A stretch of DNA of 63,646 nt, counting the filler, from Hausera hauseri (Eukaryota), in assembly GCA_046269625.1 (NCBI GenBank). It is 11 parts of 11 records of this genome, joined end to end, with 100 filler letters (N's around TTAATTAATTAA, not from the genome) between each part and the next. Parts side by side here need not be neighbours in the genome. Positions count along the whole stretch, not along the records: positions 52,968 to 59,207 come from JBJURY010121428.1; 10 more parts are not named here. One strand, given 5' to 3'. The position numbers and the translations under genes are program-made. The notes below the pieces were generated by a model. It was not told the origin of the DNA, did not search any database, and saw only the letters and a list, made by a program, of their open reading frames with translations. Of the stretch, positions 19,361 to 58,863 are shown one piece after another (the first letter of the stretch is position 1; every line of letters starts with the position of its first letter).

Positions 19361-22300
19361 CGTCTTTAAACTTCTCGAAGACCTTCTTGTTGACGATTGA
19401 GTAATTTGGATAATTTTGGGATAATCCGAGGTATCCATATACTGCGCCAATTTTGCAAACTTTTCAAAAACATCATCTGTATGGATCTGGTATAAGTGAT
19501 ATATTGAGCATATGAATGCTCACCAGGTTCTCCGTGTAGGTTGTGCTGCTGTAGAAGTTGAGCTTAGCGATAAGTTTCTTTGCCTTCTTCCAGTCACATA
19601 CCAGCTCGATTTATCCGGCTGAGGATGTACTTCATAGTTTTGCCAAAGACCGAGTTGTTATGCAGCTTGAATTGTTTCTTTTCAAACTCGTTCTTGGCAT
19701 AGGCCCTCTACTAGGTATGAAGGTCTATGTATTAATTCAGCCATTTGGACTGGTTCAACTGCAGGGCCCAATAAATCCTGATGACTCGGAGTCCATTTTG
19801 GATGGCCTGTTGGAGATTTATGTGTTGGGCTACATACCTCTTCCTGTTTTCGAAGTGAAAGAGCAGCTTCTTATGCTTACTATTTAACTAACTTTTGCTC
19901 TCTGGGAAAAAAGTTAGCTGCTCATGCCTTGTGTGGATGCTATGTGGGTATTCCACGTCCACCTCCGGTATGTAGTTTGTATCTCCATTGGGATCCATAC
20001 CTTCAATATCCAGGACTTTCGGCTGCTCTACCCACTGAAAGTTATCATAAGGCAATGGGTTGCTCATTGCTTATCCATACAGATTGTTGGCATCCAGGTA
20101 TGATATATGAGGATTCCTTGGATGGATCATAATCTGTTATGTATTTGTTGTTGGCCTTACTGTACCTGTGAATGGCCTGGCAGATTCCACCCCTGATGTC
20201 TCTCACAATCATGAGGACCATATTTTAATCCTTCAAGATCTGGAGCTTTATGCCGGTATAGCGCAGCATAGCTACCCAACTCATTCCTCGAGCTGTAAGA
20301 AATGGGCTGAATCTAACTTATGGCTCTTAAGGGTCACATACCGAAAGCTTTCGAAGACATCAGTAAGCAACATTACATCTGTGAGGAGATACATATCATT
20401 GTGTTCCCCTATTGTCCTGCACTGGAAGGTCTGCAATACTCTTTGGGCGTGCTCATAGTCAGCATTGCTAATATGACTGTATGACAACTGACTGTAGAAG
20501 TCCTCCTTGGACGGTAATGCATCTTCATCCAGAACTTTCCATGACGTTATGTAGTCATAGGGGAACAATCCTTTCCGCTTCATCACATCAAGTGTATCCG
20601 GGAAGAACCTCTTCGTCTCCTTGAGCTCATCAGCTGGAAGGCTTTTCACGAGGCTGTCCAGTGACGAGCTCATGAAGCGAAAGTATCAATGAAGCGAAAT
20701 CTGGTGCGTCCCACATGCTTCGTGAAGGTGATGTACTTCTCCTCACTATTTGGAATCACATCAATGTTCCCCTCAATATTACCCAATTGTCGAACAATGA
20801 AGTGGGAATAGTATCCACTAAGACTGTGGAAAACCACGGCAACATATGCACATGTCTTGCAGCGTAAGTTGCAACTGTTGCACGCTGCACTTCTGTATAT
20901 GCCTGTAAAATGGCAGTGATCCCTGACTTTGTGATTGTCCTAAGTGAATAGCTTTCTGCATAAGTAGCATGTTGATGCTTTGCGACATTCATATTTTTCT
21001 TGCTGCGACATCACCATGTAACCCTTATGCTTCTGCAATATGTCTTCAAGTTTGTGGGCATACTGTTCCAGACGCTGCATAAAATGTGCTGCTGCATTTA
21101 CACCCTGTGTAGGTAGGGTTCTTTGTCCAATCCTTTGACATACATGCAGTATGATGATAACTCAAGGTACTGGTATGTTGTAGTACTGCTTTGCTGTGGA
21201 CTGGGACTGCAGCTGTGAATTGGGCTGAGAATGGCCTCAAAGTCGCAATATATGACAAACGGCACCTTCTGAATCTTCTCGAACTCCTTGAATTCCAGGT
21301 AATTCTCCTAGGGGATTCTGCTCGAATGCAATAGTTTGTATTTCCGTAGGTCTTGTGCTCCTCCAGCTTTTCTGCGGCTGTGTCTCCATTAAAATGGGTA
21401 AAGCATCTTTTGCACATTTCCAGCCTTGATTTATGCTTGGATACTTCGGATCCTACCAAGCTCTCAAAATTCTTGATCTAGATGAAATGCCTCGTTTCTC
21501 CATCACCTATCAAGAGCAGATCTTTATGACTCTCCAATTTTTCCTTGCATACATGTAAGGGATAAAATTTGTCCTCCTCCAATCCGAAGATGTTGATGGA
21601 GATATTATTCACGCTTTCAAATTTCACGATTTTATCTAGGCTCGGCCGGAATGAAATACAGCTTAGGTCGTAAGTGTTCTGCACATTGTCATATATCCAA
21701 ACTGTGGAAGCATTATGTTGATCCTGGACTAGTTTTGACAAAATAGAATACATGAAGCGCATGCTGTCCTCATTATGGACATTGATGCATGCCTTTTTCT
21801 TAACTATCGATTTAGGAAGCGGTATATAAGATTTGCCTCTCATGGGAGAATACTTGTGCACATGCACAAGTAACCCCTTTTTTGTTGCTAAAGTCCAACC
21901 GCTTTTCTTGTCCTGTCTTTCTTTGGCTTTAAGGATAAGCCTAGCATAATCCTCTGTTATGAAATTCCTAATTTTAGAGGATTTCAACAGTGGCCTGTTC
22001 TTTGTCTTGAGGGCTCTACTATATAGTTCTCCTTTAACATTGGTGAAGGTGGCTTCCAATTTGAAGTTCACCTTAAGGGCCTTCAGCTCCAACAAGTTGT
22101 CCTGGAGAATTCCTCCTGCCTCCTCCCTTGAATATTCCAGGAAATCATGGAGCGATGTCTGCCCAACTGCTGCTATAATGTATTGCCGCACTTTGCTCTT
22201 CAGTGCAGCTGCATCAACTGGCCCCTGTCTTTGGCTTTTTGATGGAGCATCTGCTGCTACTTCTGATAGGCGTTTTGGTCCTGCATTAGGCCTTGATGCT

Positions 22301-22809
22301 AAAGCAGACTGTACAACTGGCTGTGCAGCCAAAGCAAGATGCTGCTCATTAAATATGACCTTCTTTGGCTTTGAATTGAAGTCTGTCAAATTGGCAATAT
22401 AATCGTTGTAAAACTGCATGTATTCTCTATCACATAGAGCCTCACATCCAGGGCAAATATAATAAATGACTCTATTGAATTTGTATCCATAATAGTCCCT
22501 CATGGCATTGTGGCAATTTTGAGGGTTGTGTATTACACATGTGCAATACACATATGAACTATTTTCCTTTGGCATGAAAGTCGTTATTGGCGTATTGGCA
22601 TATTTGATTTTCGACTTGGTGAATGAAATCAAGTGCTGCTTATGGACATTGTAAAAGTCTTCATAATTGATTTGACACACTACTTCACATTTAGGGCATA
22701 TAAAAGATTGAACTCTGTTGGACATATGGCCAAAGTACTTCTTCATAATATTGTGGCAATTTTTTGGCTCATGGATTTGAGCAAAACATTCGCTGTGAAG
22801 TTTGCACAT
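19361..22809 (-). mobile_element. Polinton family A protein-primed family B DNA polymerase, degenerate
   Basis: KSGW, RGKSYIPLP, INVHNED, endonuclease VII-like RDHCHFTG.YRSAACNSCN, VFHSLSGYYSHF, RKGLFPYDY, YLLTDVMLL.DVFESFR, IRGGIC, ANNKY; frameshifted. Confidence 0.9.
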
Positions 22810-22949
22810 CTAAAATCAACCAATTATTTTTAGGAGCACAATTAAAAAACTCACCATTCGTAGAAGTGATTTTGGAAATGATGAAAAATATAGTCATATC
22901 ACCATGTACTACGTCGCTTATTGATTGGTTTTAATGCACTTTTGTTTTA

Positions 22950-23628
22950 TTGCATCAATTAAGTTAAATACGTTGCGGCGCCAAATTTAAGGTTTTCATA
23001 TATGGTGAATCGAATTCCATCATTTGATTCTTCGAAAAATGCACGCTTGACCGAGTTTTCGAGTTTGAATAGCTAAGTATTCGACTTGTGAACTCGAATT
23101 CAAGTACCTGATGCTATATTCCGATTCAACATATATAACTTCCTATCCAGTCAAGCTCAAGGATTTATTGATTTCCGCTTCACTGGGCTTTAAATGCACA
23201 TTTTTCTTAATTCGAAATATTGATTTTGTATCTATATAGTACATTTTCATGATAATTTTTGTGTACATGGAGGTTTTCGAATATGAGGAATTGATTCCCG
23301 CTGTTATATTTTTCGAATAGTTCGATATTCGATATTCGGGCCAAAAGTATTCGATTTTCCAATATCTGACTCGAGATTCGAGATCGCCATAGTCGATTTC
23401 CTATCTGTCCCCACTAATTATAATATCAAATTTTGCTTCCTTAAGACCTAAAAAACCTATGAGGGGTCCCCTTCAGTTGCACTTTGGATCGATATTCAAA
23501 ATCGGCTCGATAAATTTAAATTCTAACTGCACATTAATATATTGCATCGTATTTCCAATCGATCCCACCCGGTCACATGTCCTAATCATCAATATTGGAA
23601 ATATCGGAAATCCGATATTATTGATTTT
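22950..23628. repeat. Polinton family A sub-terminal/TIR region upstream of pPolB
   Basis: 23505-23628 aligns with 37865-37987, which continues to an ACTACT terminus. Confidence 0.65.
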
Positions 23629-23729: not shown

Positions 23730-25370
23730 GCACACCGCAATGGCCCGGTATCACAGAAGAAGAATATCACAAGGCACAGTTGTTTGGGTCAGAGGTCGGC
23801 TGCAGAAACCTGTTGGAGTACATGTGTCACTATCTGAAATTGGATGTATACTTCTGAGCCAATGTGTTTCAGACATTTCGAGCTAAAGCGTTGGCAGAAG
23901 ATAGGCTAGAGCCAATCAACTTTTACTCAATACCCGGAATGAGTTGGGCATCAGCTCTGATGTCACGGGATCGGAATATCGAGCTATTGCAAAACCTAAA
24001 AATGCACCAAATGTTTCATATTGGTATTCGTGGAGGTATGACATTTGTCAATAATCACCATGTTAGTGCTGCTGCTGCTGCTATCAGTGATGATGCCACA
24101 TCAGTGTTGCATATCGACATTAATAACCTGTACGGCTGGGCGCTTTCACGGTTCATTCGAATAGATAGTAGACAAACAAGAGCTGGACGCAATAATAAAA
24201 AATCTGCCGAGAGCAGACAACAGAAAACAGCTCAATCGAATACCTGATGGAAGTCGATCTCGTGGTACTAGATGAGCTGCATGACTTTCTGAATGAACTA
24301 CCGGCAGAACTAATCAGCCAATGTCCGCCGGGCTCAAAGGTGAAGAAGCTGCTTATGACGCATGAACCTAAACAAAATTACATAATTCATTGGCGTCTGT
24401 TGCAATTTTACATTCAGCTCGGTGTACACGTCGCATAATTACATCGCGCAATCCGATTCGCACAGGCTCCGATATTCAAGGCATATATCAGTCGGAATTC
24501 GGAAAACCGAGCTGCAGCTTGTACGAATTTTGAAACAGACTATTGCAAAATGAAAAACAATTCTCTCTACGGTAAAACAGCAGAGAATCTGAGAAAGTGC
24601 TAAATGTATGCTTATGCAATAGCGAAAAGGGATTAGTCACGTACACGAGCAAGGCGCAGTTCAGGCTGTCAATGAACATTGCCTATGGATTGGTTGCTAT
24701 GCTTTTAAACAGGGAATAAATCGTACTGGACCGGTCAATTTATACAGGACAAGTGGTATTGGATATGAGCAAGTTGCGGATGTATGAGCTGCAGTATCGC
24801 AATTTGGCACGATATCGGCAAATGTTCGGCGGATGTAAGACCAAAATAATAGCCGGTGACACAGAGTTTTTTCTTGGAACTGAAAAACGTCCATCGCGAA
24901 TAACTACTGCGGCAAATTATGACAGACGGATTACTGGACACGTCAAATTACCAACAGTATCATCCATTGTACAGCAACGCCAGCATAAACAAAATCGGTT
25001 GTTTCAAGAATGAAAGTGAAGGTCGGCTTCAGTATCGGGAATGGGTACTTCTACGACCAAAATGTTATAGCCTTTTAACTGACTGTGGACCGAAGATGCG
25101 CTCAAAAGGAGTTCAGTTGGCTCGAACGGAAATAAACCACGGTGATTATCACCGTACGTATGAAGGAGGAACAGAAAACGGTGGAGAAGAAGGAGGAGGA
25201 GGACAATCAAAAAGGTTGTTGTGTCTCAAACGATCATCCGATCAATTGAGCACCAGCTTTATAGGGTGACCAATACAAAAGTCGCTTTATTATGTAATTA
25301 TGATAAACTTAAGTGGGTGGGGTGGAATAAGAGTTTGGCGTACGGACATTGGAGTTTGGAATAAAACATA
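23730..25370 (+). mobile_element. Polinton family B pPolB C-terminal part, degenerate
   Basis: GIRGGMTFVN, DINNLYGWALS, K.KNNSLYGK, AGDT(D), KIGCFK.ES, LRPKCYS. Confidence 0.9.
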
Positions 25371-25569
25371 AACACACATGAATTCAGTCCTGACGATGCA
25401 GATAGATCATTGTGACAATTCATTGCCATCTGTGTTTTGCATAAATAATGTATATTGTTCGTTGTTTTTGCCTTTTGTTTTATTATCATTTAATTTATCT
25501 CTATATATTTATATATTTAACTAAATGTGTCGAGAAACAACATCAAGAACAAAATAAATAAAATTTATT

Positions 25570-26070
25570 AATCATAAGCTGAAATCAAAAACGAAGTAAT
25601 TCAAATCAGCGTAAACTTTCCCACCTTCCGTATTGGCGATTTACCGCCGTGCATATCCTTGTTCTTTCAATTTCAATGTTAGATAGCCTTTAGCTCCTTC
25701 CGCTGGCAAAACGGCTGCTGCTGTTGCTGTTTCGCCGTCATGCCAACTGACAATTTTTGTCATATTTCCTTTGAGAAAAATCGACGATGTATCTTGGATA
25801 TCGTTACGCAATACCAAATCACTGTCAACTTTTCTCATTGTGTCATTCATTGTATCCAAATCATCTCCTCTGATCTTTTTAACCAATAGACCATATTTCA
25901 CCGGTTTGATTTTGACCGTTTGCGTCAATGGCAATTGAATAGCGTCGCGCAGATAATGTAAGTTTTATCCATTATACAACGGGGAATTTCTGAACGAATA
26001 TTCGCTGTACCTAGGTTTTTTGAGAGACTCGCAGAACTGTCATCTGAATTGTTTTCAAAAGGTGTTTTAA
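25570..26070 (-). pseudogene. Polinton accessory gene X1 (unknown function)
   Basis: Conserved copy at 45852-46299 in the same position after pPolB; LHYLR.AIQLPLTQT.KIKPVKYGLLV...YLTLKLK..KSPI. Confidence 0.6.
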
Positions 26071-26840: not shown

Positions 26841-27340
26841 TTATTTGCATGAAACATCGTCATTACAAAGCCGTAGACATTTTTTGTAAGCACAATGCGG
26901 TCCATGATCACGATACTGACATCCAATATTGTCAGGTACCATCTCCAGCGAGCTGTTCGATGTTGAATATGTCGTCATTTGCAACTCGGGAAAGTGTGAA
27001 TGTAGTTGTGTAAACTTCTGTCCGTCAATTTGATCTTTAATGTAAAATATTGTATTTTTAAAGTCAAAACGATCACAAATGTCTCCCGTAATACATGTTA
27101 CACAGAAAGTTGAATTGCCTTCATACCAATGACGTCCATAACGATGTCGAAAGAGAAATCCATTTGTAAATTTCGCCTTTTCCATCAGGTCATTCCACAC
27201 AACATCGGGCTGGAATACGTACACAAGCAGTTCGAAAATGTTACTGACGTCCAGAGTGCCTAATTCCTTTATTATTATTAATTCCTTTATTATTATTAAT
27301 TCCTTCATTATTATTAATTCCTACTATATCGCCTTTACTT
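26841..27340 (-). pseudogene. DEDD-like nuclease of Polinton, N-terminus replaced by 18-bp repeat (KELIII)
   Basis: Homologous to 58373-58863 (IDIEAF...IKEL...HGL.W.EG...HGPHCA). Confidence 0.6.
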
Positions 27341-28004: not shown

Positions 28005-28500
28005 TTATTGATAATTAAAATATGTTTCAGATACACGCCAAATTGGACTTTTGATACCGACATTTTCCTTGTATCCCTGCAATTCAGTGTTCAGTCGACA
28101 CTATAAATCATTATCGGGTACATTAGACATTTCGCGACCGATAAAATCAAACAATTTAGTTTTGTAAGTCGGTAAAACGACAGATTGCTGTTGCACGGTC
28201 GTATCGTTCAACTTTAAATCCACGTTTCATTGATGTAAAACATCAGAAAGTTTATCCAAATTTTCACCCAAAAGCAGTTTTACACGACAGCTGTATTTGG
28301 GTGTGCATAGAGACACGGGATCATTAAATGAAATAAGTACTGGCGTTTGCAGAAAATGCATTGTTTTTGGTAAAAATATCTGTTTTTGGCGCGACGGTTT
28401 TGATTTTCGTTTACGCATTCCAATCATTGCCATTTGCCTTTTTGGTGTCCGTTTTGCTGCTACTGCTGCTGGTGATAATGATGATTCCTGAACAAGTTCC
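28005..28500 (-). pseudogene. Polinton accessory gene X2 (unknown function, paralog of X1)
   Basis: Homologous to 57215-57739; ends ELQGYKENVGIKSPIWRVSETYFNYQ. Confidence 0.6.
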
Positions 28501-28779
28501 TTTTTCCTTTTCAGATAATCGACATTATAATCGTTTTCCAGACAATCGCCATTAGAATTATCACACGGTTTTTCTAATTGTTAGACAGGTTCCGTTTTCC
28601 TTTCCAGCAATTTGACATTAGAACTGTCCTTTTTGTAGCCAAACAACCACGACCAATCGGAATTTTCATCAGTGTCACCACCATCATCATTGAGTAGAAT
28701 CGTTTTATCGTATTCCATGGCAATAATGTCTGAATGAGCATGGGAATGGTGTTTATAGTTTGTTATTGTTGTGCAGAGT

Positions 28780-29248
28780 ACATTATTTTGATTCACTAAA
28801 GCATTTATGTGGTTTTTAATTTGATTAATAATCGGTTCATAGTCCAATGTCCGAAACCGAGTACAATAATTTTTCCACTGCTAAACACATTGACACGGAG
28901 TGGGCGAAACGATGTCAGTCTCAGTGCAGGAAACAGTTTGGGTTCGTACGTACATTCATTGGCCACTGTTAATTTGTACAGATTGATTGATGTGCAGTCT
29001 AACTGAGTCGCTACCGTTATTTATTGGATTTGGTCAATGACAATTCCAAATGGCAGTAGTTTATTGTTACTGTCAGCTGTAATTGGTTTGCGGCAATCTA
29101 TAATAAGACACATTCCCGATTGAAATGTGATGCATGTAAAATCCGGTGGACACTTGAAGACATACTGCCTCGGCTTCCATTGATTAAAAGGTAGTGTGTT
29201 AATGTTACACTCGGTAAAATGTCTGCGATAGTTGATATTAGCTAACAT
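28780..29248 (-). pseudogene. TATA-binding-protein-like gene carried by Polinton (copy 1)
   Basis: Manual translation: MLANINYR...CITFQSGMCLI...IDQIQ*ITVATQLDCTSINLYKL...YEPKLFPALRLTSFRPLRVNVFSSGKIIVLG; matches the two-repeat TBP pattern (IQN....YEPELFPGL...IF.SGK..LTG). Confidence 0.8.
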
Positions 29249-29344
29249 TATGGAAACAGTGTTTATACTATAGCTATTTATATGCGTTTAACACGATTAT
29301 AGACAAATCATGTGAGGAAAGATTGTATTATTATTATTATTTAG

Positions 29345-29903
29345 ACGAAGCTGCAGAATGATGCAATTTTCCAGATTGTAGGCCCCAATGGAAGTAGCCT
29401 ACAAAACACTAACGTGACATGATCTATTCTCCGCGGTACAACCACATTTACTGGCACCAGGATGTTGGTGATGATGGTGAGTTCGGTGTAACACATCAGG
29501 AATTTTGTAAATTAAAATCGATAACGCTAATTGATGGGTTTGATGAGAACTAGACTGAGAGATTACGAAACAGTAACGTTATTGTCATTGACAATTTATT
29601 TCAGGAAGCTGCGAAACAATCGGACTTCAACAACCTGTTCACGAGAAATCTAAACGTACACTATTTGGTGCTGTTCAAAAAATTCTCCGTGATCAGACTA
29701 TCATTGATTATGTTGCACGACAAGCATTTCCCCATAACCAAGCCTACTTGATAGATGCATATCATGATGCTATGAACAAACCGCATGGATATCTGTTTAT
29801 TGACTTTACCCAACAGTGCTCAGATGACATGCGTTTACGAACAGATATTTTCAATCCGAAAGGTGTATATGTCTATAAACGAATTCGAAAATCGACACGA
29901 TAG
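29345..29903 (+). pseudogene. A32-like DNA packaging ATPase (Polinton), degenerate
   Basis: FQIVGPNGS (decayed Walker A), VIVIDNLF (Walker B), YLVLFK..RDQT, PHGYLFIDFTQ. Confidence 0.85.
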
Positions 29904-30161
29904 TAGTAGTAGTAGTAAAATGAAGAATTTCCGAAAAACAATTATTAAACGTAAACCAACCAAACAGGTATCCAAGAAGAAACGTGCGTCAAATACATCA
30001 AAATGCTACGCTACAACTTAGCGAGTGATCAGTTCAGTGCTTCAAACAACAACAACAACATCAGCAGCGAAGCGCAGGTTACCGTCAAAGTGGCAACGAT
30101 TATAAACAACTACGATTCGATGCATCAATATTCGTACATTCATTCATTCATTCATTGAATC

Positions 30162-30472: not shown

Positions 30473-30625
30473 TATAAACAGTGACAGTAAGTATATGATG
30501 ATAAAGCGATATGGGTGCATGGTTTTCATCATTTTGTCCCAGTTTACCGAATCTTTCACGAAGGTTTTGTTATAATTGCTACACTTCTAACAAAAATAAT
30601 ATCATTGACAACACCGACGACAACG

Positions 30626-31647
30626 ATGGACGACGTGTGGTTCGATCCGCGTCATCCCGTCAAATATACTGACGTCGACAAACTGGCAAAACTGTCAAAC
30701 AGACTCGGCGACAAACCCAACGTTGGCTGGGGAAACAGTTAGCATACAGCATAAACAAACCGATAAAAAGACGGTTTCCATCTCGTGCATACCGCACTGC
30801 AAGTGTAAATAATGTATGGCAAATGAATCTGATGAAAATAATTCCATACGCCAGCATCAACGATGGGTATTGATATGTGCTGACATGTATTGATGTGTTT
30901 AGTCGTTTTGCACGTGCAGCTGCAGTCAAATCTAAATCCGATAAGGAGATTGCCTGTTCACACATTAATAGACCAATAGCCGCCGAAATGTACAAACGGA
31001 TTTGAGTAAAGAATTTTATAACTCCCATTTCACATTGGCTTTAGGGCGGTTCGGTGTAAATCACTACTAGGTGTTTTCACAATACAAGGCTGCACTCATT
31101 GAACGATTTAATCGAACCTTACGCGGCAGACTGAACAAATTCTTTATCAAGCAGGGCAATAAATGCTGGGTAGATGTATTACCGAATATTAAGCATGCAT
31201 ACAATCATTCGACACATCGTGGAATCAAGGGATTACGGTTGATGGATGTAATCAATGATTTGGACATGTAGCTTTACCAAAATCGAACACAACGACGACC
31301 AACTAAACGTCCCAAGTATAAAATAGGTGATTATATACGTATTTCAAATTTGAGTACGACACCATTCATTAGGAATTTCAATCGGAACAGGAGCGTTGAG
31401 GTTTTCCGAATTTCGGCAATCAACATAAGAAAACGCATGTTATGTAAGTTTTAGACGATGAAAATGGTGATAAAATACGTGGCAAATTTTATGAACAGGA
31501 ACTGCAAGTACTACAGGAAAGACCTGATGTGTATCGTATTCAAGAAATTCTACGTTCACTCGGCAAAGGTTCGAATAAACAGTATCTCGTCAAGTGGCAC
31601 GGATACACTACACCAAGATGGACATATGCATCGCAGATTGAGTGATG
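30626..31647 (+). mobile_element. Polinton RVE integrase with C-terminal chromodomain, degenerate
   Basis: VWQM.LM, LTCIDVFSRFA, KAALIERFNRTLR, YNHSTHR, KQYLVKWHGY. Confidence 0.9.
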
Positions 31648-47631: not shown

Positions 47632-49204
47632 NNNNNNNNNNNNNNNNNNNNNNNNNNNNNNNNNNNNNNNNNNNNTTAATTAATTAANNNNNNNNNNNNN
47701 NNNNNNNNNNNNNNNNNNNNNNNNNNNNNNNCGCAGAATAGGTGCGGTTTTATAAAGATCACAAAGATCATTTAACAGACTTCAAGTCAAAGTGCAAGAA
47801 GACCATCTTCAGTGAGCAATCCAATCCTGACGCTACACAACCAGTTATAGATGCAGCACAACCGATTGCAGATGCAGCACTACCGGTTACAGATGCTGCA
47901 CAATCAGTTCCACAAACTTCAACGCAACACACCTTAACCTAGAACCCTGAATCAATGGCGCAGCAGCACACAGGATTAAAACGTGCCGAGACACATATTC
48001 CAAATGCTCCACCAAATAGTCAAAGGCAGCTAGCAATTGATATCGCAGCATTGAAGAGCAAAACCCGCAGATATGACATATCAGCAACTGACCAAACAAC
48101 GCTCAATGAGTTTATGGAATATACAAAGGATGAAACCATGGGGATTCTCAAAGATAACGTGGTGGAGCTCAAGGCCCTTAAAGTCAACTTAANNNNNNNN
48201 NNTTAATGGCCACATTCACAAATGTTGATGATGAAGAATCAAATCGGGCCTTCAAGACTAAAATAGGCCAATATTGGAAACCACCAATACTTCAGAATGG
48301 CTGCATTATGTATACGCGAAGCTGATACGTGAAGCTGAGGAGAGCTAGGACAAGAAGAGCGGATGGACTTTGCCAACCATAAAAAGATTGCTTATGTTCG
48401 TACACAAGTATTCCCCCATGCGGGGCAGCTCTTATATATAGTTTTCGGAATGGACTGTTAAGGAAAAAGCATGCATCAATGTCCTTAATGATGATGCAAT
48501 GTGTTTAAAACATTCCATTCCATCAAAACTCATAACGAATCAGAAACATGTATGTCGAGTTTGGTTATATAATTATCTACAGCACAATTATGACTTCAAA
48601 TGTATTATGTCCCCACCATCCTTAGATGAAGTCAAAAAATTTTGGCGACCCAACAATATATCCATCAATATATTTGGATTGGAGGTAGATAAATCCTATC
48701 CACTACAAATATGCGATGCTGAATTGGAAGACCATAGGGATCTGCTCCTGCTAAATGATGGAGAAAAGAAACATTTTGTTTGGATCAAAAACTTTGAGTG
48801 TCTAGTAAGATCCCAAATAACAGCAAATCATGCAAGAAATCAAATAATAAAAGATGTCTGTCTGATTTCGGTGGCTATGCAGCTGTGGAGAAGCTTGCGG
48901 AGCACAAGATGTACTGCAAGAACAATTATTGTATCAGGACAGAATTTCCCAAGGAGGACATATAGAATTTAAAGAGTTTGAAAAGAAGCTGAAGGTAACA
49001 ATAGTCATCTACTGCGACTTTGAAGCAATCTTGAGTCCACTTTAGAGTTGCAACCAAATCCGCAACAAAGCAGCATAACGGCATATCACAATCATACCAA
49101 TACCATTCATTATATTGTACGTATGTAAAAGGACTGGACAAGGACCCATTTCTATTCAGGAGTCCAAATACAGTAGCACATTTTATGAAGCGATTAACGT
49201 GACC

Positions 49205-51015
49205 TACATTGAAATTGAGACAGAAGTAAAAAGTCTACCTTCGTTTTTCAACACAAATAATATAAATTTGTTATATTTAAGAACATTATGAACACTTATT
49301 AATGCAAGAAAAGTTTACTCCTCTTCGTGCTGCCTTAGAGCAATTAGCTGGTACTTTCTTCAGTGCTGTTATGAAGGAAGATGTATGTATTTTGTTGAGG
49401 ACTGATCTTGCCTACCTTATCAGAGAATCTGCAATTTTGGCTTGAAAATTATTAGAGTAAACAAAAAGTTTGAAATGAGTTTATTATGCCTTTCGTATGA
49501 AACTTTCAATTGATTGAGATGATTAATTCTGGTAAGAAATAATACCTTAACGGACTTTCCACAACATCTTCACATTTATTTCTGCTAGACAACATGTCAT
49601 CTTCCACAATACTGTCAGTTAGACTGATGTAATTGTTCTTGATCAATTTACACAAATCCAGCAGTTGATCAGCATGCGGATACCGATTGAGTGATTTGGG
49701 AAAAGAACCATTGGATTACCAAAAAACGATAGTAAAATTGGTCTCCGAAATTCATATTGCAAAACTGGATTACAAGTTTGAATGATGGGATATTGCCCAT
49801 TCATCGAAATATTTCTCCAAGGATCGATTTTGAGTGGCTTTAACAATGTTATTATAGCATTTGGAGCCGCAACTGTACTTGCCATAAATTTTAATACCTG
49901 TACCACCAGCTCACTATCAATATCTTTCGCTTTGTTGTGGGCGGTATCAACTTGGTCGGATTTATTTTTCTTTAACCGAAGTGATAATAATCGGCTTTTC
50001 TGGCATTCAAATGATGTCGAATACTTAAATTAATTTACATAATGTGTAGCATTTATAATGAATTAATGTAACAATCATTTCCAGTATTATAAAGTGGTAA
50101 AGGTGTTTTGTAGATAGATTCATGAGGCGGGAGATCGGGTTCGACTATAGACCCGACGCGGTGGCCACGGACGCCCGGCCGTGCCAGACCAAATAGGCCA
50201 AAGGGCACCGACCGCCGTGGGCACCACAGAGTCCAAAAATCCTCAATTTGTCTAAGCTGAGGAACATTACGAGTTTCATATCTTTTGGGATATAATGAAT
50301 GCCCAGATAGGTCATTGTGTCTAAAGCACTTTAAGCGTAGTGTGCGGATGCTAACTCAAGTCAGAAGACAACCGCATTACCAGCATGTTTCTCCCGGGTG
50401 AATTTACCAATCTTAGGCAAGCATTTGGTATGATAAACATCTCATGTGATGGCCAAACCACCTTTGATAAACACTGGATCAGATATGGCACGCTCACTGA
50501 TAGCTAACCATAGCAACACCTTCTTTGGAAACTTTGCACGTGGTATATACTTTACAGTTTCACTTATTAGGGAAGCCTTTGACTGGTAGAAGTATTTTCC
50601 TTGCCAATCATTTCCAACAACCGTCAGATATATCACGTCATCCACCACACAAACTACATTTGACTTGGCAGGGAAAATTTTTGTCACTAACTTTTGCAAA
50701 CGGCTTCGTTAAGTTTTTACATGAAGTGGAGAAGCAGCTGGCTTGCTTTTGCGTGCTCTTCTGGCAATCCCCATATTCTTCAAAATGGATTTCCACAGTT
50801 CTATAATAACAAGTAAAACGTTTTGACAAAGATGTATATGACTTTGCCGCCTCCATAGCAGTAGCCATTTTGAGTAAACGCTTCACATTTGATTTACCTA
50901 AAGTAGTTTTTTTGCCCGAACCTGCTTTCCTTTCTAATGGTTTATTTGTCTCTAGCTATTAAAGAAGTCTGTACACTGTAGCATGTTACATAAGGATTTG
51001 GATAAAATGAGCATA
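49205..51015 (-). mobile_element. Tc1/mariner-like DNA transposon remnant
   Basis: ATVYR...LERKAGSG HTH region; VVDD.IY; KFPKKVLLWLAISE; LASAHYA; IEDFW joined across the insertion to HFKLFVYSNNF. Confidence 0.8.
49481..50228 (-). mobile_element. Solo LTR (Gypsy family of 608-1012) with 4-bp TSD GAGT
   Basis: Begins TGTGGTGC on the minus strand; GAGT at 49477-49480 and 50229-50232; removing it rejoins the transposase frame. Confidence 0.8.
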
Positions 51016-52967
51016 TAGAAGAAGGAACAAGAGGAATGACGCGAGGCAACAATATGCTACATGTGTTCCAAATCCTTCACTAAGAAGAATCATAAAATCA
51101 GGGATCTCTGCCATTTTACAGGCACATATCGGGGTGCAGCCTTCAATAATTGCAACCTACGTTGTAGAATAGTAACATTTGTGCCTGTAACAACCTCAGT
51201 GGATATGATTTCCATTTTATAGTCCAGAAATTTGGAAACATTGAAGGTAACATCGAGGTGATCCAAAAAAGCAAAGAAAAATATGTGACCCTTACGAAAC
51301 ATGTCGGAAAAGTCAGACTCACTTCGTAGACAGCTTTCGCTTCAAAAGAACCTCCAGCAGAATAACTGAAGGAGATGAAGCCGTTTTTTTCTACTACATT
51401 TGACTTGGTCAAAAGGAAAGGAGTGTTTCTCTATGATTACATCACATCATGAAAATATTTGATGAAACAGCTTTGTCGGCCAAGAATGACCTTTACAAGA
51501 AGCTTCCAGATAGTGATATTAGCGATGCGAATTATCAACACGCACGAAAGGTCTAGGAAGATGTAGACCTTTTCATATTCAAATGTAGAACAATAGGAGA
51601 ATATAGCAACATATATCTTCTTACAAATGTGCTGGTACTGACAGATGTCTCAGAAAGCTTCCGAGATGTCACACATGCAAGCCACAAGTTGGATCCAGCT
51701 CATTTCTTTGAGGTGCTCCAGGAATGTGTTGAGTAGCGATGCTGAGATATACCGGTATTATACTGCAGATCTTGAAGGATTATTGTATGATCTTCATAAT
51801 CGAGCGAAGCATTAGAGGTAAAATATGAAAGGCAATTCACCGGGATAGTGAGACCAATAACAAGTACACGGCCGAATATGATCCATCGAAGGCATCCTTG
51901 TACATTACGTACTTGGATGCAAATAACCTATATGGTTGGGCAATAAGTGCCCCATTGCCTTATGACAACTTTAAATAAGTAGATCATGGATCACACTTAG
52001 CAATACAAGATGTAGATCCCAATGGAGATAGGTCTACATACTGGAGGTGGATGTTGAATATCCACATAATATCCATAAAGGGCATGAACAGCTGCCTTTC
52101 CTCCCTGAGAGCAAGCAGATACCTCATGGTAAATATCGAAAGCTGTTCTGCCGTCTAGAAAATTGAGAGAGGAATGAAGCCCACTACATCAGTCTCCAAC
52201 AACCAATGAAGAACGGACTCTGCATCATGAGATCCATCGGGCCCTGCAGTTCAGGCAGTCCATCAGAAAGCCCAATTCAATCTGTATAAGAACAGCGTTT
52301 TTGGAAAAACGATGGAGAACATCGGAAACAGGATAAACATCGAACTGGTCTGTGAGTAGAAAAGGGCCAAGAAGCTGATCGCTAAGCCGAATTTTCACAA
52401 CAGCACCATACACACAGACAACCTGGTCAGTATTCATATGCTGAAAACAGCTTAAGTTCAACAAGCCAATTTATATGGGCATGTCAATACTGGACATATC
52501 AAAGAACTTGATGGATGACTTTCATGATAACATCACGGTCCCCGCATTCAAGGATCTACAGCTGATGTATATGGATTCTGATAGTTTCATATATAAGATC
52601 CATACAGTCGACATCTATTTGGACTTTGCTGAATTGGCACAGCATATAAATACGTCCAACTATCGTAATGACCATAGAAACTTCTCTGTAAAGAACAAAA
52701 GGCCCTTGGAAAATTCAAAGATGATATGAACGCGGCAATTATCTCAAGATTTGTAGCTCTTAGGTCCAAATGTACGCCATCGATGTCTGTGACCAAGTAA
52801 AGAAGTAGGCCGAGGGTTATGCAGGAGCAAACACGCATATTATCCGAAATACGAATGATCCAATATANNNNNNNNNNNNNNNNNNNNNNNNNNNNNNNNN
52901 NNNNNNNNNNNTTAATTAATTAANNNNNNNNNNNNNNNNNNNNNNNNNNNNNNNNNNNNNNNNNNNN

Positions 52968-54117: not shown

Positions 54118-55144
54118 TCATTGAATCTGTGATGCAAAAATCCAATTCGGTGCAGTGTATCCGTGCCACTTGACGAGATATTGTTTATTCGAATTTTTTG
54201 CCATGTGAACGTAGAATTTCCTGAATAAGATATACATCGGGTTTCTCGAGCAGTACCTGCAGTTCCTGTTCGTAGGATTTACCGCGTATTTCCTCACGGT
54301 TTCATCCTTTAAAACGTACATGACAGATGGTTGTTTTGTGTTGATTGCCGAAATGAGGAAAACCTCGTCGCTCCAGTTCTGATTGAAATGCTTAATGAAT
54401 GACATACTTATTTTCGAAATACGTACACAAGCACCGATTTTATATTTTGGGCGTTTAATTGCCTGTCGTTATGTTCAGTTTTGATAAAGCCACATGTCCA
54501 AATCATCGATTCCGTCAACCGGGAGCATTCCATTGATTCCACGGTGTCGAATGATTGTATGCATGAATAATATCCGGCAGTACATCTACCCAGCGTTTGT
54601 TGTCTTGCTTCGTAAAGAATTTGTTTAGGCGACCGCGCAATATTTGATTAAATCGTTCAACGAGTGCAGCCTTGTATTGGGAAAACACCGAGTTGTGGTT
54701 TACGCCCAACCGTTTCAAGACCGCTGCAACGTGGGCGTTGTAGAATTCATTACCCAAATCCGTTTGTAAGTTCTTCGGCTCTTGTTGTTGTTGCATCAGT
54801 GTCTGAACAGCGTCAGCAATCTCTTTACCGGATTTAGATTTCACGGCAATTGCTCATGCAAAACGAGTAAGCACATCAACACATGTCATCACGTACCAAT
54901 ACCCATCGTTGATGCTGGCATACCGAATCATTTCCATCAGATCCATTTGCCATACGTTATTTACACCGGCAACACAGTATGCACGAGTTGGAAACCGCCT
55001 TCTTATCTGTTTGTTTAGGCTGTATGCTATCTGTTTCCCCAGCCAACGTTTGGTATGTTGCCGAGTCTGTTTGACAGTCTTTGTCAGTTTGTCGACGCCA
55101 GTATACCCGACAGGATGACTCGGGTCGAACCACACATTGCCCAT
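54118..55144 (-). mobile_element. Polinton RVE integrase + chromodomain, copy 2
   Basis: VWQMDLM, CVDVLTRFA, LQTDLGNEFYN, VERFN, NWSDEVF, QYLVKWHGY. Confidence 0.92.
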
Positions 55145-55288
55145 CGTTGTCGTCGATGATGTCGTTTTTGTTAGCATTGTAGCAATTAGAACGAAACGTA
55201 AATGAAAGATTCGGTAAACTGACACAAAATGATGAAAACCATGCACACCTATCGCCGAATCATCATATACTTACTTTCATTGTTTATA

Positions 55289-55603: not shown

Positions 55604-55789
55604 TTTTGGAAGTATTTATGCGGATGAGACGCAGTTGTTTATAACCGTTGCCAATGTGACAGTTGTTGCAGCTGTTCGACGAAACACAAAATTGATTAGT
55701 CGCTTGACTGTAGCGGTTCGTTTTGATGCACATTTCTTGACAGGCAGCCGCTTGGTAAATTTGCGTTTAACAATTGATTTTCGGAAATT

Positions 55790-56451
55790 CTTCGTTTTAT
55801 CACTAGCGTGTCGATTTTTGAATTTGTATATAGACACACACCTTTCTGATTGAAAATGTCTGTTCGTACACGCAGGTCATCGGAACACTGTTGTGTAAAG
55901 TCGATGAACACGTGTCCATGTGGCTCAGTTGTAGCATGATATGCATTTATCAAGTAAGTTCGGTTGTGAGGATATGCTTGTCGTGCAACATAATCAAAGA
56001 TAGTCTGATCACGGGGATTTTTGAACAACACCAAATAGTGTACCTTTAGATTTCTTGCTCGATGCTGTCCGCCCTGATGGAACATGTTTTGCGTAAGGAA
56101 AATAACCGTCACACCACGTGTCGTGCAAACTTCGTGAAAAGGTTGTTTAAGTAGGTTTATTTCGTTGCCTCTTGAAATAAATTTTCAATGACAATAACGT
56201 CACCATTGCGTAATCGTTCAGACCAGTTCTCATCAAACCCATCAATTACCGTTATCAATTTCATTTTACAAAATTATCTGTGTCCAACCGGACTCTCCAT
56301 CATCACCACTGCCCTGATGCCAGTAAATGTGATTGTACCGAGGCGAATGCAACATGTCACGGTAGTCCTGCAATAGTTTACACAAAAAGTGTGTTTTGCC
56401 ACTTCCACTGGGGCCTACAATCTGGAAAATGGCACCATTCTGCAGCTTCAT
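55790..56451 (-). pseudogene. A32-like packaging ATPase, copy 2
   Basis: Walker A IVGPSGSGKT; VIFLTQNMF; YLVLFKNPRD; PHGHVFIDF. Confidence 0.92.
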
Positions 56452-56510
56452 CTAATAATATACAAACTTTCCTCACATCACATCATTTGTTTATAATCAT
56501 ATTACACGCA

Positions 56511-56518
56511 TATAAATA
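56511..56518 (+). promoter_or_regulatory. TATA box upstream of TBP-like gene
   Basis: TATAAATA about 30 nt before ATG 56545; conserved in copy 1 (29275-29282, minus strand). Confidence 0.5.
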
Positions 56519-56544
56519 GCTATAGTATAAACACTGTTTCCATA

Positions 56545-57000
56545 ATGTTAGCTAACATTAACTATCGCGGACATGTTACCGAGTGTGACATTAACACACT
56601 ACCTTTAATCAATGGAAGCCGAGGCAGTATGTCCTCAAGTGTCCATCGGATTTTACATGCATCGTATTTCAATCGGGAAAGTGTTGTATTATGGGTTGTC
56701 GCAAACCAATCACAGCTTACAACAGTAACAGTAAATTACTACCATTCACAATTGTCATTGACTAAATCCAATCAATAACAGTAACGACTCAGACTACCAA
56801 ACAATCTGTACAAATTAGCAATGGCCGTTGCTGAATGTACGTATGAACCCGAACTGTTTCCTGCACTGAGACTGACATCGTTTCGCCCACTTTGTGTTAG
56901 TGTTTAGCAGTGGAAAAATTGTTGTATTCGGTATTCGGACAGTGGACTATGAACCGATTATTAATCACATTAAAAACCACCAACGTCTTAGTGATTAAAA
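56545..57000 (+). pseudogene. TATA-binding-protein-like gene carried by Polinton (copy 2)
   Basis: Across frameshifts: MLANINYRG...FTCIVFQSGKCCIMG...IQSITV...YEPELFPALRLTSFRPLCV...FSSGKIVVFG. Confidence 0.82.
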
Positions 57001-57214: not shown

Positions 57215-57739
57215 TTGTCTGAAGGGCGATTGTCTGGAAACGAAACAGGAACTTGCTCAGAAATCAGGAGCAGCAAAACCGACGTTAAAAAGGCAAAATG
57301 CAATTATTGGAATATGCAAACGAAAATGAAGACCGTCGTGCCAAACAGACATTTTTACCGAAAAGAATTTTTCGCAAGTATGGAATGCATTTTCTGCAAA
57401 TGCCCATACTGATTTCATTGAATGATCCCGTGTCTCTGTGCACCCAAGTACAGCTATCATGCGAAAAGGCTTTCGGGTGAAAATTTGGATAAACTTTCTG
57501 ATGCTTTACATCAATTAAACATGGATTTAAAGTTGAGTGAAACGACCTTGCAACAGCAATCTCTCGTTTTACCAGCCACAACAACTAAATTGTTTGATTT
57601 TATTGGTAGCGAAATGTCTAATAGACCCGATGATGATTTAGAGTGTCGACATAACATTGAATTGCAAGAATACAAGGCAAATGCCGGTATCAAAAGCCTG
57701 ATTTGTCGTATAGCCGAAGCACAATTTAGTTATCAATAA
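57215..57739 (+). pseudogene. Polinton accessory gene X2, copy 2
   Basis: Homologous to 28005-28500. Confidence 0.6.
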
Positions 57740-57840
57740 ATGTTGCTTATGTGTATTTTAACGTTTTTTTTTTCATGAACCCATTAGCGAGTATAAATAG
57801 ACATGCAATTTGTTTCTTTGGGAGTATAGTAGTAATAATA

Positions 57841-58302
57841 ATGAATGATGTAAAAATTATTCTGACGGATGAAAATGCTATGATACCGAGATGTGTTACG
57901 ACAAACAGTTCAGGCTACGATGTGTTTTCCAATGTCAATAAGATAATTGCCGATAGCACAATCAAATGTATAACGACCGGAATTCGATTGGCGATTCCGC
58001 CCGGTTACTACGGCCAACTTTCATCGAAAAGCGGATTGACAAAGATCAAACTGACAGTTGTCGGCGGCGTAACTGATTCTGACTATCGTGGTGAAATCAA
58101 AGGGTTGCTGGAAAATCAGTCCGGAGCCATGTACAATATTTCAAAAGCCAGTGCCGTGGCACAAATCGTTTTTCTTTGTTGTGAAGAGGCTGAATTCACT
58201 GTAATGTCATCAGAAAAGTGGGGATTGTTTTGTGTAAATGAAACGTTGAATGAACGCAAAGAACGCGGTTTCGATGATTCGGACAAAACCACTTGTGTTT
58301 AA
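57841..58302 (+). CDS. dut: dUTPase (Polinton-borne), uninterrupted ORF
   Basis: All five motifs recognisable: SGYDV, SKSGL, GGVTDSDYRGEIK, VAQIV, ERKERGFDDS. Confidence 0.92.
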   Translation: MNDVKIILTDENAMIPRCVTTNSSGYDVFSNVNKIIADSTIKCITTGIRLAIPPGYYGQLSSKSGLTKIKLTVVGGVTDSDYRGEIKGLLENQSGAMYNISKASAVAQIVFLCCEEAEFTVMSSEKWGLFCVNETLNERKERGFDDSDKTTCV

Positions 58303-58372: not shown

Positions 58373-58863
58373 ATGGCGACAACATTTATAGATATTGAAG
58401 CTTTCCTAGATAATAATGCCGAGTACCTGATAAAGGAATTATGCGTTATGGACGTCGGTAACATTTCCAAACCGCTTGTGTACGTATTCAAGACCCGTGT
58501 CGTGTGGAATGACCTGCGAGAAAAGGCGAAAATTACCCATGGATATCTCATACGACGTCATCATGGACTTTATTGGCACGAAGGCAATTCAACGTTTTGC
58601 GTATCATGTATCATGCGAGACATTTGTGATCGTTTTGACATTCGAAATACAATATTTTACATTAAAGATCAAATTGACTGACAAAAGTTTACGCAACTCC
58701 ATTCACAGTTTCCCGAGTTGCGAATGACAACGTATTCAACAACATGGAACAGCTTACTGGCGATGGTACCTGACAATATTAGATGTCCGTTTCGTGATCA
58801 TGGACCGCATTGTGCTTACTAAAAATGACTACGGCTTTGTATTGACTATATTTCATGCAAATA
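58373..58863 (+). pseudogene. DEDD-like nuclease, copy 3
   Basis: N-terminal FIDIEAF (DxE ExoI-like), IKELC, HHGLYWHEG, C-terminal CP..DHGPHCA; two in-frame stops. Confidence 0.65.

Follow-up and report, generated by a model that had tools for sequence, protein, structure and literature searches.

The window analysed here, a stretch of 63,646 nucleotides of the Hausera hauseri assembly GCA_046269625.1, consists of 11 distinct contigs with N44-TTAATTAATTAA-N44 linkers between them, and two of these contigs carry the remains of a small gene for a TATA-binding protein (TBP), called mini-TBP below. On the contig at 52968-59207 (copy B), the pseudogene occupies 56545..56998 on the plus strand, with a start ATG at 56545, and has an internal stop; its reading frame is split into four pieces, all of which are recognised by a profile built from intact relatives (E between 7e-4 and 2e-15), and the intact natural protein P0002 aligns with it by tblastn in two pieces, at 70-73% identity. 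On the contig at 23729-32141 (copy A), it lies at 28752..29248 on the minus strand and starts at 29248. An earlier note made from this DNA had reported two decayed TBP-like copies and implied that both were scattered by frameshifts. Both copies are indeed present, and copy B is as fragmented as was thought, but copy A can be followed for about 130 codons in a single frame, interrupted by one stop, and only its tail shifts frame, near 28855, to end at about 28752. The assignment to TBP itself is confirmed by three lines of evidence, namely the Pfam match of copy A read with X at the stop (PF00352, E 5.4e-9, 36.2 bits versus a cut-off of 22.9), a PDB sequence search in which each of the 35 matches of copy A (E<=10) is TBP or contains it, and the fold of an intact relative described below. 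No third mini-TBP copy was found in the window.

The two copies, which had been taken as independent, belong instead to one family, being 77-78% identical by blastn across about 5.4 kb, 90% identical over the TBP gene and 79-87% over the neighbouring genes. Copy A is 74% identical to P0002 and retains 24 of the 30 columns conserved at >=90% in relatives, and dN/dS between copies A and B is 0.68 over 125 codons. This ratio, together with the near-invariant columns kept in copy A, indicates that the window copies decayed after insertion; both are dead genes. The TBP gene of the window is part of a much-amplified family, since 47,400 contigs of one public run, which may itself be the source of the window, align to the 6.2-kb contig of copy B. 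All 30 bins of that contig are covered in the three runs aligned, out of nine, where depth is not to be equated with copy number.

The surrounding genes are those of a Polinton, of which the contigs of copies A and B are internal fragments. In both copies, as previously described, the TBP gene is divergent from that of an A32-like packaging ATPase, decayed and arranged head-to-head with it (55828..56451, minus strand, in copy B; 29351..29900, plus strand, in copy A). A retroviral-type integrase gene is present at 54121..55138 (minus strand, decayed) in copy B and at 30632-31642 (plus strand) in copy A. On the other side, copy B carries a dUTPase gene downstream of TBP (57730..58299, plus strand) and a conserved Polinton gene of about 155 aa to which no function is assigned (58373..58855, plus strand), the latter also found in copy A (26850-27254, minus strand). 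The contig of copy A bears pPolB, integrase and ATPase genes as well as a further annotated feature at 23747..25400 (plus strand); the adenovirus-type protease was seen in related loci only.

Six contigs of the window have Polinton genes, with pPolB pieces on five and ATPase plus integrase on two, and others hold eukaryotic genes and retrotransposons. Host-type genes include those of a copine, an SNase-domain protein, an alpha-mannosidase, a short-chain dehydrogenase and an ArfGAP-PH protein, beside a gypsy-type integrase. With Polinton contigs and eukaryotic-gene contigs side by side, the window can be read as genomic DNA of a eukaryote, likely an animal, in which decayed Polintons abound; one Atlas cluster includes a single arthropod record. 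The pPolB fragments at 19361-23628 and 47732-52867, which share 68% DNA identity with each other, are only about 30% identical to the pPolB of the TBP-bearing lineage, so that a second Polinton family is present in the same window. On the contig at 12368-19260, genes for a copine, an SNase-domain (Tudor-SN-like) protein and an alpha-mannosidase adjoin, all decayed and seemingly poor in introns, a group that resembles a cluster of retrocopies. A 69-bp tandem repeat is located at the start of a contig (5931-6294).

Intact relatives of the mini-TBP were found in number. A search with P0001 gave four intact proteins among five candidates, the best being 72-74% identical, and of 6,596 candidates screened with a profile of those four, 2,251 matched, a set that probably includes cellular TBPs. 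The search covered proteins of 79-280 aa. The best 120 of the 2,251 matches measure 131-224 aa (median 149) and, the two nearest excepted, are 45-59% identical, so we count at least 120 intact relatives; among representatives at 50% identity there were 171 matches. Metagenome pattern matches included 59 relatives among 222 and a scan of prokaryotic genomes one among 30, the latter on a Polinton-like contig inside a bacterial metagenome-assembled genome (MAG). These 59 metagenome loci and the single MAG locus constitute the 60 TBP loci considered here, all partial. The MAG locus (L060, JANOGQ010000345.1) spans 12.7 kb and carries TBP together with nearly all of the Polinton genes, and its presence in a bacterial MAG is probably due to binning contamination. 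No TBP relative appeared among the 7 and 21 candidates from viral_contigs, and the phage collection gave no match for TBP or the putative capsid.

That the TBP gene belongs to the element, as the earlier note had argued from the window, is borne out by these loci. Polinton genes accompany it in 26 of the 60, and in 18 of the 24 that reach at least 3 kb, the others being mostly too short. Integrase (rve), A32-like ATPase, adenovirus-type protease and pPolB genes are all represented, together with a conserved gene of about 410 aa before the protease, which has no Pfam or PDB sequence match and which we call a putative capsid gene by its size and position only. Six long contigs matched by size between the TBP and putative-capsid match lists provide circumstantial support. 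The TBP gene is not always in the same place; it can precede the ATPase, face it head-to-head (L032, L025) or follow the protease. As further cargo, TBP-bearing Polintons carry genes for a ubiquitin-conjugating enzyme, a dual-specificity phosphatase, an LRR protein, and KilA-N, PLA2-like and RING proteins (L023:225-719, L006:4008-4316, L033:1918-3327, L053:7136-7993, L053:9080-9478, L039:1710-2168).

The TBP reading frame is uninterrupted in 47 of the 60 loci. Of 1081 pairs, 66 fall within 0.05<dS<1.5, and these, which are not independent of one another, give a median dN/dS of 0.21 and a maximum of 0.53. Intact relatives are thus under purifying selection. A tree was built from 55 rows that had been chosen and labelled by eye; in it, copy A joins P0002 and P0003 (100/98) on a long branch, the short TBPs form one side of a branch (99/97), and three longer Polinton TBPs plus five unplaced proteins adjoin the short forms, all of them split from eukaryotic-type TBPs (100/98). 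The root of this tree is arbitrary and the bootstrap not settled; for this reason no donor of the TBP gene is claimed. The five unplaced proteins (P0254, P0216, P0240, P0248, P0267) are core-only TBPs of 167-178 aa with both lobes intact, and branch between cellular-type TBPs and the Polinton group. The longer Polinton TBPs, of about 170 aa, form a sister clade (L053:9986-10492, L054:25-537, L055:595-1092, L058). Judged by sequence, its members retain N-lobe helix-like segments and share DNA-face residues and the promoter box described below; this clade is a possible intermediate in TBP reduction.

In view of all this, it is scarcely conceivable that the gene is a functionless passenger retrocopied from host TBP: it is intronless, both window copies are broken with dN/dS of 0.68, and intron-poor decayed host genes occur in the same window, but intact frames in 47 of 60 loci, dN/dS near 0.2, the conserved place in Polintons and a clade apart from eukaryotic-type TBPs refute this idea for the family.

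An AlphaFold2 model was built for intact P0002 with 120 relatives (pLDDT 96, pTM 0.86). Among the Foldseek PDB matches listed at E<=0.001, all 44 are TBP. VIA-align superimposed the model on TBP with Z 13.0 and an rmsd of 2.6 (146 of 160 residues aligned over 1-151), the next non-TBP structure reaching Z 6.6, and the Pfam TBP score of an intact relative is 63.1 bits. In the model, the mini-TBP adopts the two-lobed TBP saddle over its whole length, as do cellular TBPs (PF00352; 5fur_A, 7o4i_O, 1mp9_B; Z 12-13). With a median of 149 aa and no extra domain, it is nevertheless about 30 residues shorter than the cellular core. No helix of four or more residues is predicted before residue 85, so that the mini-TBP as modelled has neither of the N-lobe helices H1 and H2. 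The earlier note had found repeat 1 more diverged than repeat 2, which is correct, but in the model this repeat also lacks both helices. According to the text of Ravarani 2020 (PMC7221094), the patch of TBP contacted by TFIIA, Mot1, TAF1 and Brf lies largely on helix H2.

Alignment columns were mapped to yeast numbering via a plant-like TBP (offset 41, checked at P191, I194, V203 and L205). The mini-TBP keeps from cellular TBP the first Asn (N69, 96% of the 120 relatives), three of the four intercalating phenylalanines (F116, F190 and F207, 99-100%) and Pro191 (88%). The fourth, F99, falls in a gap and appears to be lost, the placement of F99 and I103 depending on the alignment of a shortened loop. 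An asparagine had been expected in both repeats; this holds for the first, while in the second the intact relatives have Ser (97%). Also kept are both glutamates of the C-lobe stirrup (95% E plus 4% D at one, 100% E at the other, n=120). In our reading, these glutamates, within the YEPE motif, would correspond to C.L3.2 and C.L3.4 of Ravarani 2020, where both are tied to TFIIB binding in TBP (text of PMC7221094).

The positions V71, I103, V122, T124, N159, V161, I194, V203 and L205 of cellular TBP are, on the other hand, replaced. In the N-lobe, we find N at V71 (95%), Q at I103 (87%), I or V at L114 (87%), R at V122 (99%) and M at T124 (100%); in the C-lobe, S at N159 (97%), T at V161 (86%), R at I194 (98%), C at V203 (100%) and N at L205 (100%). 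The DNA face is thus rewritten with near-invariant, mostly polar residues. Positions 194/203/205, which are R/C/N in 98-100% of mini-TBPs, are those that set specificity in yeast TBPm3, whose substitutions I194F/V203T/L205V let TBP accept G at position 2; the C-lobe of TBP touches the 5′ half of the box and the N-lobe its 3′ half (text of PMC1636458).

A second gene often accompanies that of the mini-TBP. It encodes a domain of about 115 aa belonging to no Pfam family, occurs in 31 of the 60 TBP loci and persists in decayed form downstream of TBP in both window copies (remains of the predicted gene at 57289..57736, plus strand, in copy B, and at 28230-28580, minus strand, in copy A, with a further piece at 25644-25964, minus strand). 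Its two subtypes align with each other (probability 79%, E 1.6e-5), and its model (pLDDT 93) matches the Enc34 single-stranded DNA-binding protein (SSB), DUF2815 and T7 gp2.5 with Z 8.0-8.4 over about 103 of 116 residues; the Atlas offered no lead. Because the model folds like T7 gp2.5, this neighbour probably serves as an SSB in replication and not as a partner of TBP, and the idea that it supplies the missing TBP helices was rejected on the same ground. Some TBP loci carry two SSB-like paralogues (example domain L012:1788-2135). In several loci the start of the gene follows a short GT..AG stretch, which suggests that an intron connects it to an exon further upstream with an acidic product.

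The TBP-bearing Polinton loci share a promoter-like box, first noticed by eye in 90-nt upstream listings and then counted in the same data, after de-duplication of the upstream windows, which come from related loci so that the counts are not independent. Upstream of virion-module genes, ATAAAC[AG] is present in 57 of 72 windows, compared with a mean of 3.9 and a maximum of 10 in 200 dinucleotide shuffles, and it is strictly oriented, with no reverse-strand occurrence in the 72. It precedes 14 of 15 ATPase genes, all 10 copies of PX, all nine putative capsid genes and 10 of 12 of the ~155-aa genes, and less regularly the protease (4/5), the integrase (4/6), PZ (5/8) and PW (1/7); PX, PZ and PW are names that we take to apply to these genes. 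The box is mostly 31-40 nt before the start of ATPase and PX genes, and the preceding base is T in 41 of 54 cases. It ranks first among hexamers overall and was counted in 24 of 25 loci; all eight windows of the longer-TBP sister clade contain it, and it precedes the LRR cargo gene in four cases out of four. When the box overlaps the end of the preceding gene, the Ile-Asn pair is encoded by ATA AAC in 25 of 38 tails versus 16 of 76 gene bodies (p 8e-6), and this preference at synonymous sites designates the box as a DNA-level signal.

TBP and SSB-like genes tend to be preceded by other signals. The box is found in only 2 of 45 of their windows, versus 25 with a canonical TATA (5.0 shuffled) and 25 with the initiator TCAYT (4.0 shuffled), and the TATA-initiator spacing is 30-32 nt in 12 of 23; a canonical TATA precedes only 19 of 38 TBP genes. 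Related elements therefore display two promoter classes, the box for the virion module and ordinary TATA plus initiator for TBP and SSB-like genes. From gene function, we infer that the virion-module genes are late.

Vestiges of this organisation survive in the window. A canonical TATAAATA, putatively an early promoter read by the host, is found upstream of the TBP gene at 56511..56518 (plus strand) in copy B, and the same word in copy A; its first base, 56511, is also where the interval of the earlier note begins. Boxes of the form TATAAACA persist before the ATPase gene in copy B (56488..56495, minus strand, 44 nt upstream of the start; one base differs in copy A), before PX, the small gene after the ATPase (copy B 55636..55643, minus strand; copy A 30101-30108, plus strand), before the integrase gene (copy B 55281..55288, minus strand; copy A 30473-30480, plus strand) and, in copy A, before the ~155-aa gene. 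One more TATAAACA box precedes the TBP gene itself (56526..56533, plus strand, 19 nt before the start in copy B; 29260-29267, minus strand, in copy A), which is unusual, only 2 of 38 related TBP genes having one. In both copies it sits between the canonical TATA and the start, near the expected transcription start, and is possibly a site of self-repression.

All box statistics come from TBP-bearing loci; a search for TBP-less Polintons to set beside them gave none in the capsid scan (0/82), in the integrase scan (0/126) or with a divergent pPolB piece (0/5). The ATPase scan returned 3 distant loci out of 174, two of them near-identical, with a box before 1 of 14, 1 of 19 and 2 of 16 ORFs; we read these three as virophage-like and too distant for a fair control. 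Two virophage-like loci, L061 and L062, repeat the word TATCCAGAG a short distance upstream of many of their start codons, which looks like a different private promoter-like motif.

Taken with the structural model, the two promoter classes lead us to favour, on balance, a role of the intact mini-TBP as a late-gene switch that would bind TATAAAC(A/G) and recruit host TFIIB and RNA polymerase II (Pol II). In this scheme, the early genes (mini-TBP, SSB and probably also dUTPase) would be transcribed by means of host TBP, at promoters of the common TATA-and-initiator type. Next, the mini-TBP would occupy the TATAAAC(A/G) box, oriented as TBP normally is on DNA, which would place the non-canonical C of position 7 beneath the N-lobe, where its DNA face has changed most. 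Position 7 mirrors position 2, and the N-lobe counterparts I103/T112/L114 are Q/T/I-V, with F99 apparently gone. Since N-lobe contacts are changed where wild-type TBP meets a leucine clash with a C-G pair, the leucine presumably being L114, a preference for C7 may, as our hypothesis goes, have a structural reason. Devoid of helix H2, the mini-TBP would escape Mot1/BTAF1, TAF1 and Brf1/2 and would need no TFIIA, whereas its conserved stirrup glutamates could recruit host TFIIB, then Pol II. ATPase, integrase, protease and putative capsid genes would be transcribed last. Of the two functions that the earlier note had proposed, the redirection of host Pol II to the promoters of the element is favoured by the non-canonical box, which precedes virion-module genes in one orientation only, and the alternative, a decoy, comes out weaker, as the regulator-binding helix is absent and the DNA face near-invariant.

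Alternatively, host TBP could read TATAAAC as a weak TATA common to Polintons, and the mini-TBP could act otherwise, for example by occupying or silencing host or early promoters. We regard this as unlikely, while granting it a real chance. A box 31-40 nt before ATPase and PX starts resembles a core promoter that any TBP could use, and a box near the likely start site of the window TBP gene could repress. Moreover, TATAAACG keeps 27% activity in plant protoplasts (text of PMC10005294), and wild-type TBP has been crystallised on the C(-25) variant (1qn3, among the Foldseek matches), which it binds with a Hoogsteen pair needed to avoid the clash with a leucine (text of PMC4402545). What speaks for a dedicated reader is that early-type genes use canonical TATA plus initiator and virion genes hold C7 even at synonymous cost; a near-invariant rewritten DNA face also asks for a specific target.

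An improbable variant is that of a decoy soaking up host TFIIB or TBP regulators with no action at viral promoters. The TFIIB stirrup is indeed the most host-like part of the mini-TBP, and one intercalating Phe appears lost. Yet a decoy for Mot1, TAF1 or Brf1 would need helix H2, absent in the model, and a TFIIB sponge would have no need of a near-invariant N-lobe DNA face and would leave the box unexplained; the element also needs working Pol II, because no polymerase of its own was seen in the ORFs scanned.

More doubtful still is the attribution of the box to another factor, such as a host forkhead protein, or to constraint at the protein level, with a TBP-like protein engaged in replication or packaging. 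The forkhead consensus is RYAAAYA, which ATAAACA fits; many boxes lie inside coding sequence, and the SSB-like replication gene is frequent in TBP loci. Forkhead sites are, however, expected in either orientation, and neither the reverse orientation nor GTAAACA occurs in any of the 72 virion-module windows. The box is also found in different reading frames with a bias among synonymous codons, against protein constraint, and the neighbour folds as a T7 gp2.5-like SSB and not as a TBP partner.

Returning to the late-gene switch, we incline to the view that the mini-TBP functions as a viral mimic of TBP at late promoters, distinct both from a canonical TBP and from a vTBP of the herpes type. With the vTBPs of beta- and gamma-herpesviruses it would share a polar DNA face, a non-canonical late TATA word and the use of host Pol II. 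According to the text of PMC12529657, KSHV ORF24 has polar residues at V122, T124, V161, L114 and L205; this protein of 752 aa uses an N-terminal domain to bind Pol II itself, together with viral partners, and is predicted not to be compatible with TFIIB. The Polinton protein differs by its 149 aa, by the TFIIB stirrup it has kept and by the fact that no partner was detected. Like the TBP-like proteins of nucleocytoviruses, it has a viral TBP fold in which the N-lobe regulator signature is not conserved. These proteins mostly pair with a viral TFIIB and their key glutamate is about 40% conserved (text of PMC7221094), in contrast to 95-100% here, where no TFIIB or RNA polymerase Pfam family matched among 85 ORFs of the partial TBP loci. 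The top 24 BFVD matches are proteins of 186-988 aa with 8-20% identity.

The elements resemble other Polintons/Mavericks (adintoviruses) by their pPolB, rve integrase, A32-like ATPase, adenovirus-type protease and putative capsid, and differ from them by the TBP gene and the shared TATAAAC box. The novelty attributed to a TBP in such an element was slightly overstated, as a 'TBP' gene is already labelled on the map of a MELD virus with adintovirus-like PolB (Starrett et al. 2021, Fig. 5 legend, PMC8502044). This single legend mention, in a section on non-animal datasets, comes with no analysis, family survey or promoter, and the likeness is by label alone. The text layer of the animal adintovirus maps in their Suppl. 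Fig. S2 has no TBP label, a word search of the main text of other Polinton-related papers gave neither TBP nor TATA, and 'Polinton' is absent from Ravarani 2020 (PMC7221094). In the literature covered, which leaves subscription papers, Repbase, figures and most supplements to one side, no analysis of the mini-TBP family or of its box was found. The window gene is thus apparently a decayed member of an undescribed family of Polinton mini-TBPs.

How the capsid and packaging genes of Polintons/Mavericks are expressed, and on what temporal programme in the absence of a helper virus, is to our knowledge an open question in the field. The window copies are fossils, and the interest lies in the mini-TBP family. 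We give about even chances to the broader proposal that these Polintons, as a widespread lineage, run an autonomous early-to-late cascade by means of a TBP of about 149 aa, among the smallest two-lobed ones, which would have shed the N-lobe helices and with them the control of host regulators, kept the TFIIB stirrup and been retuned to a private TATAAAC box. The family offers a natural experiment on which TBP helices are dispensable and on how specificity residues relate to the sequence read, and a TBP blind to Mot1 and TAF1, paired with a box that it alone prefers, could be made into an orthogonal tool for Pol II promoters. If the proposal is true, it would describe a natural altered-specificity TBP and a late transcription system made of one protein, and these 'transposons' would have a regulated viral cycle.
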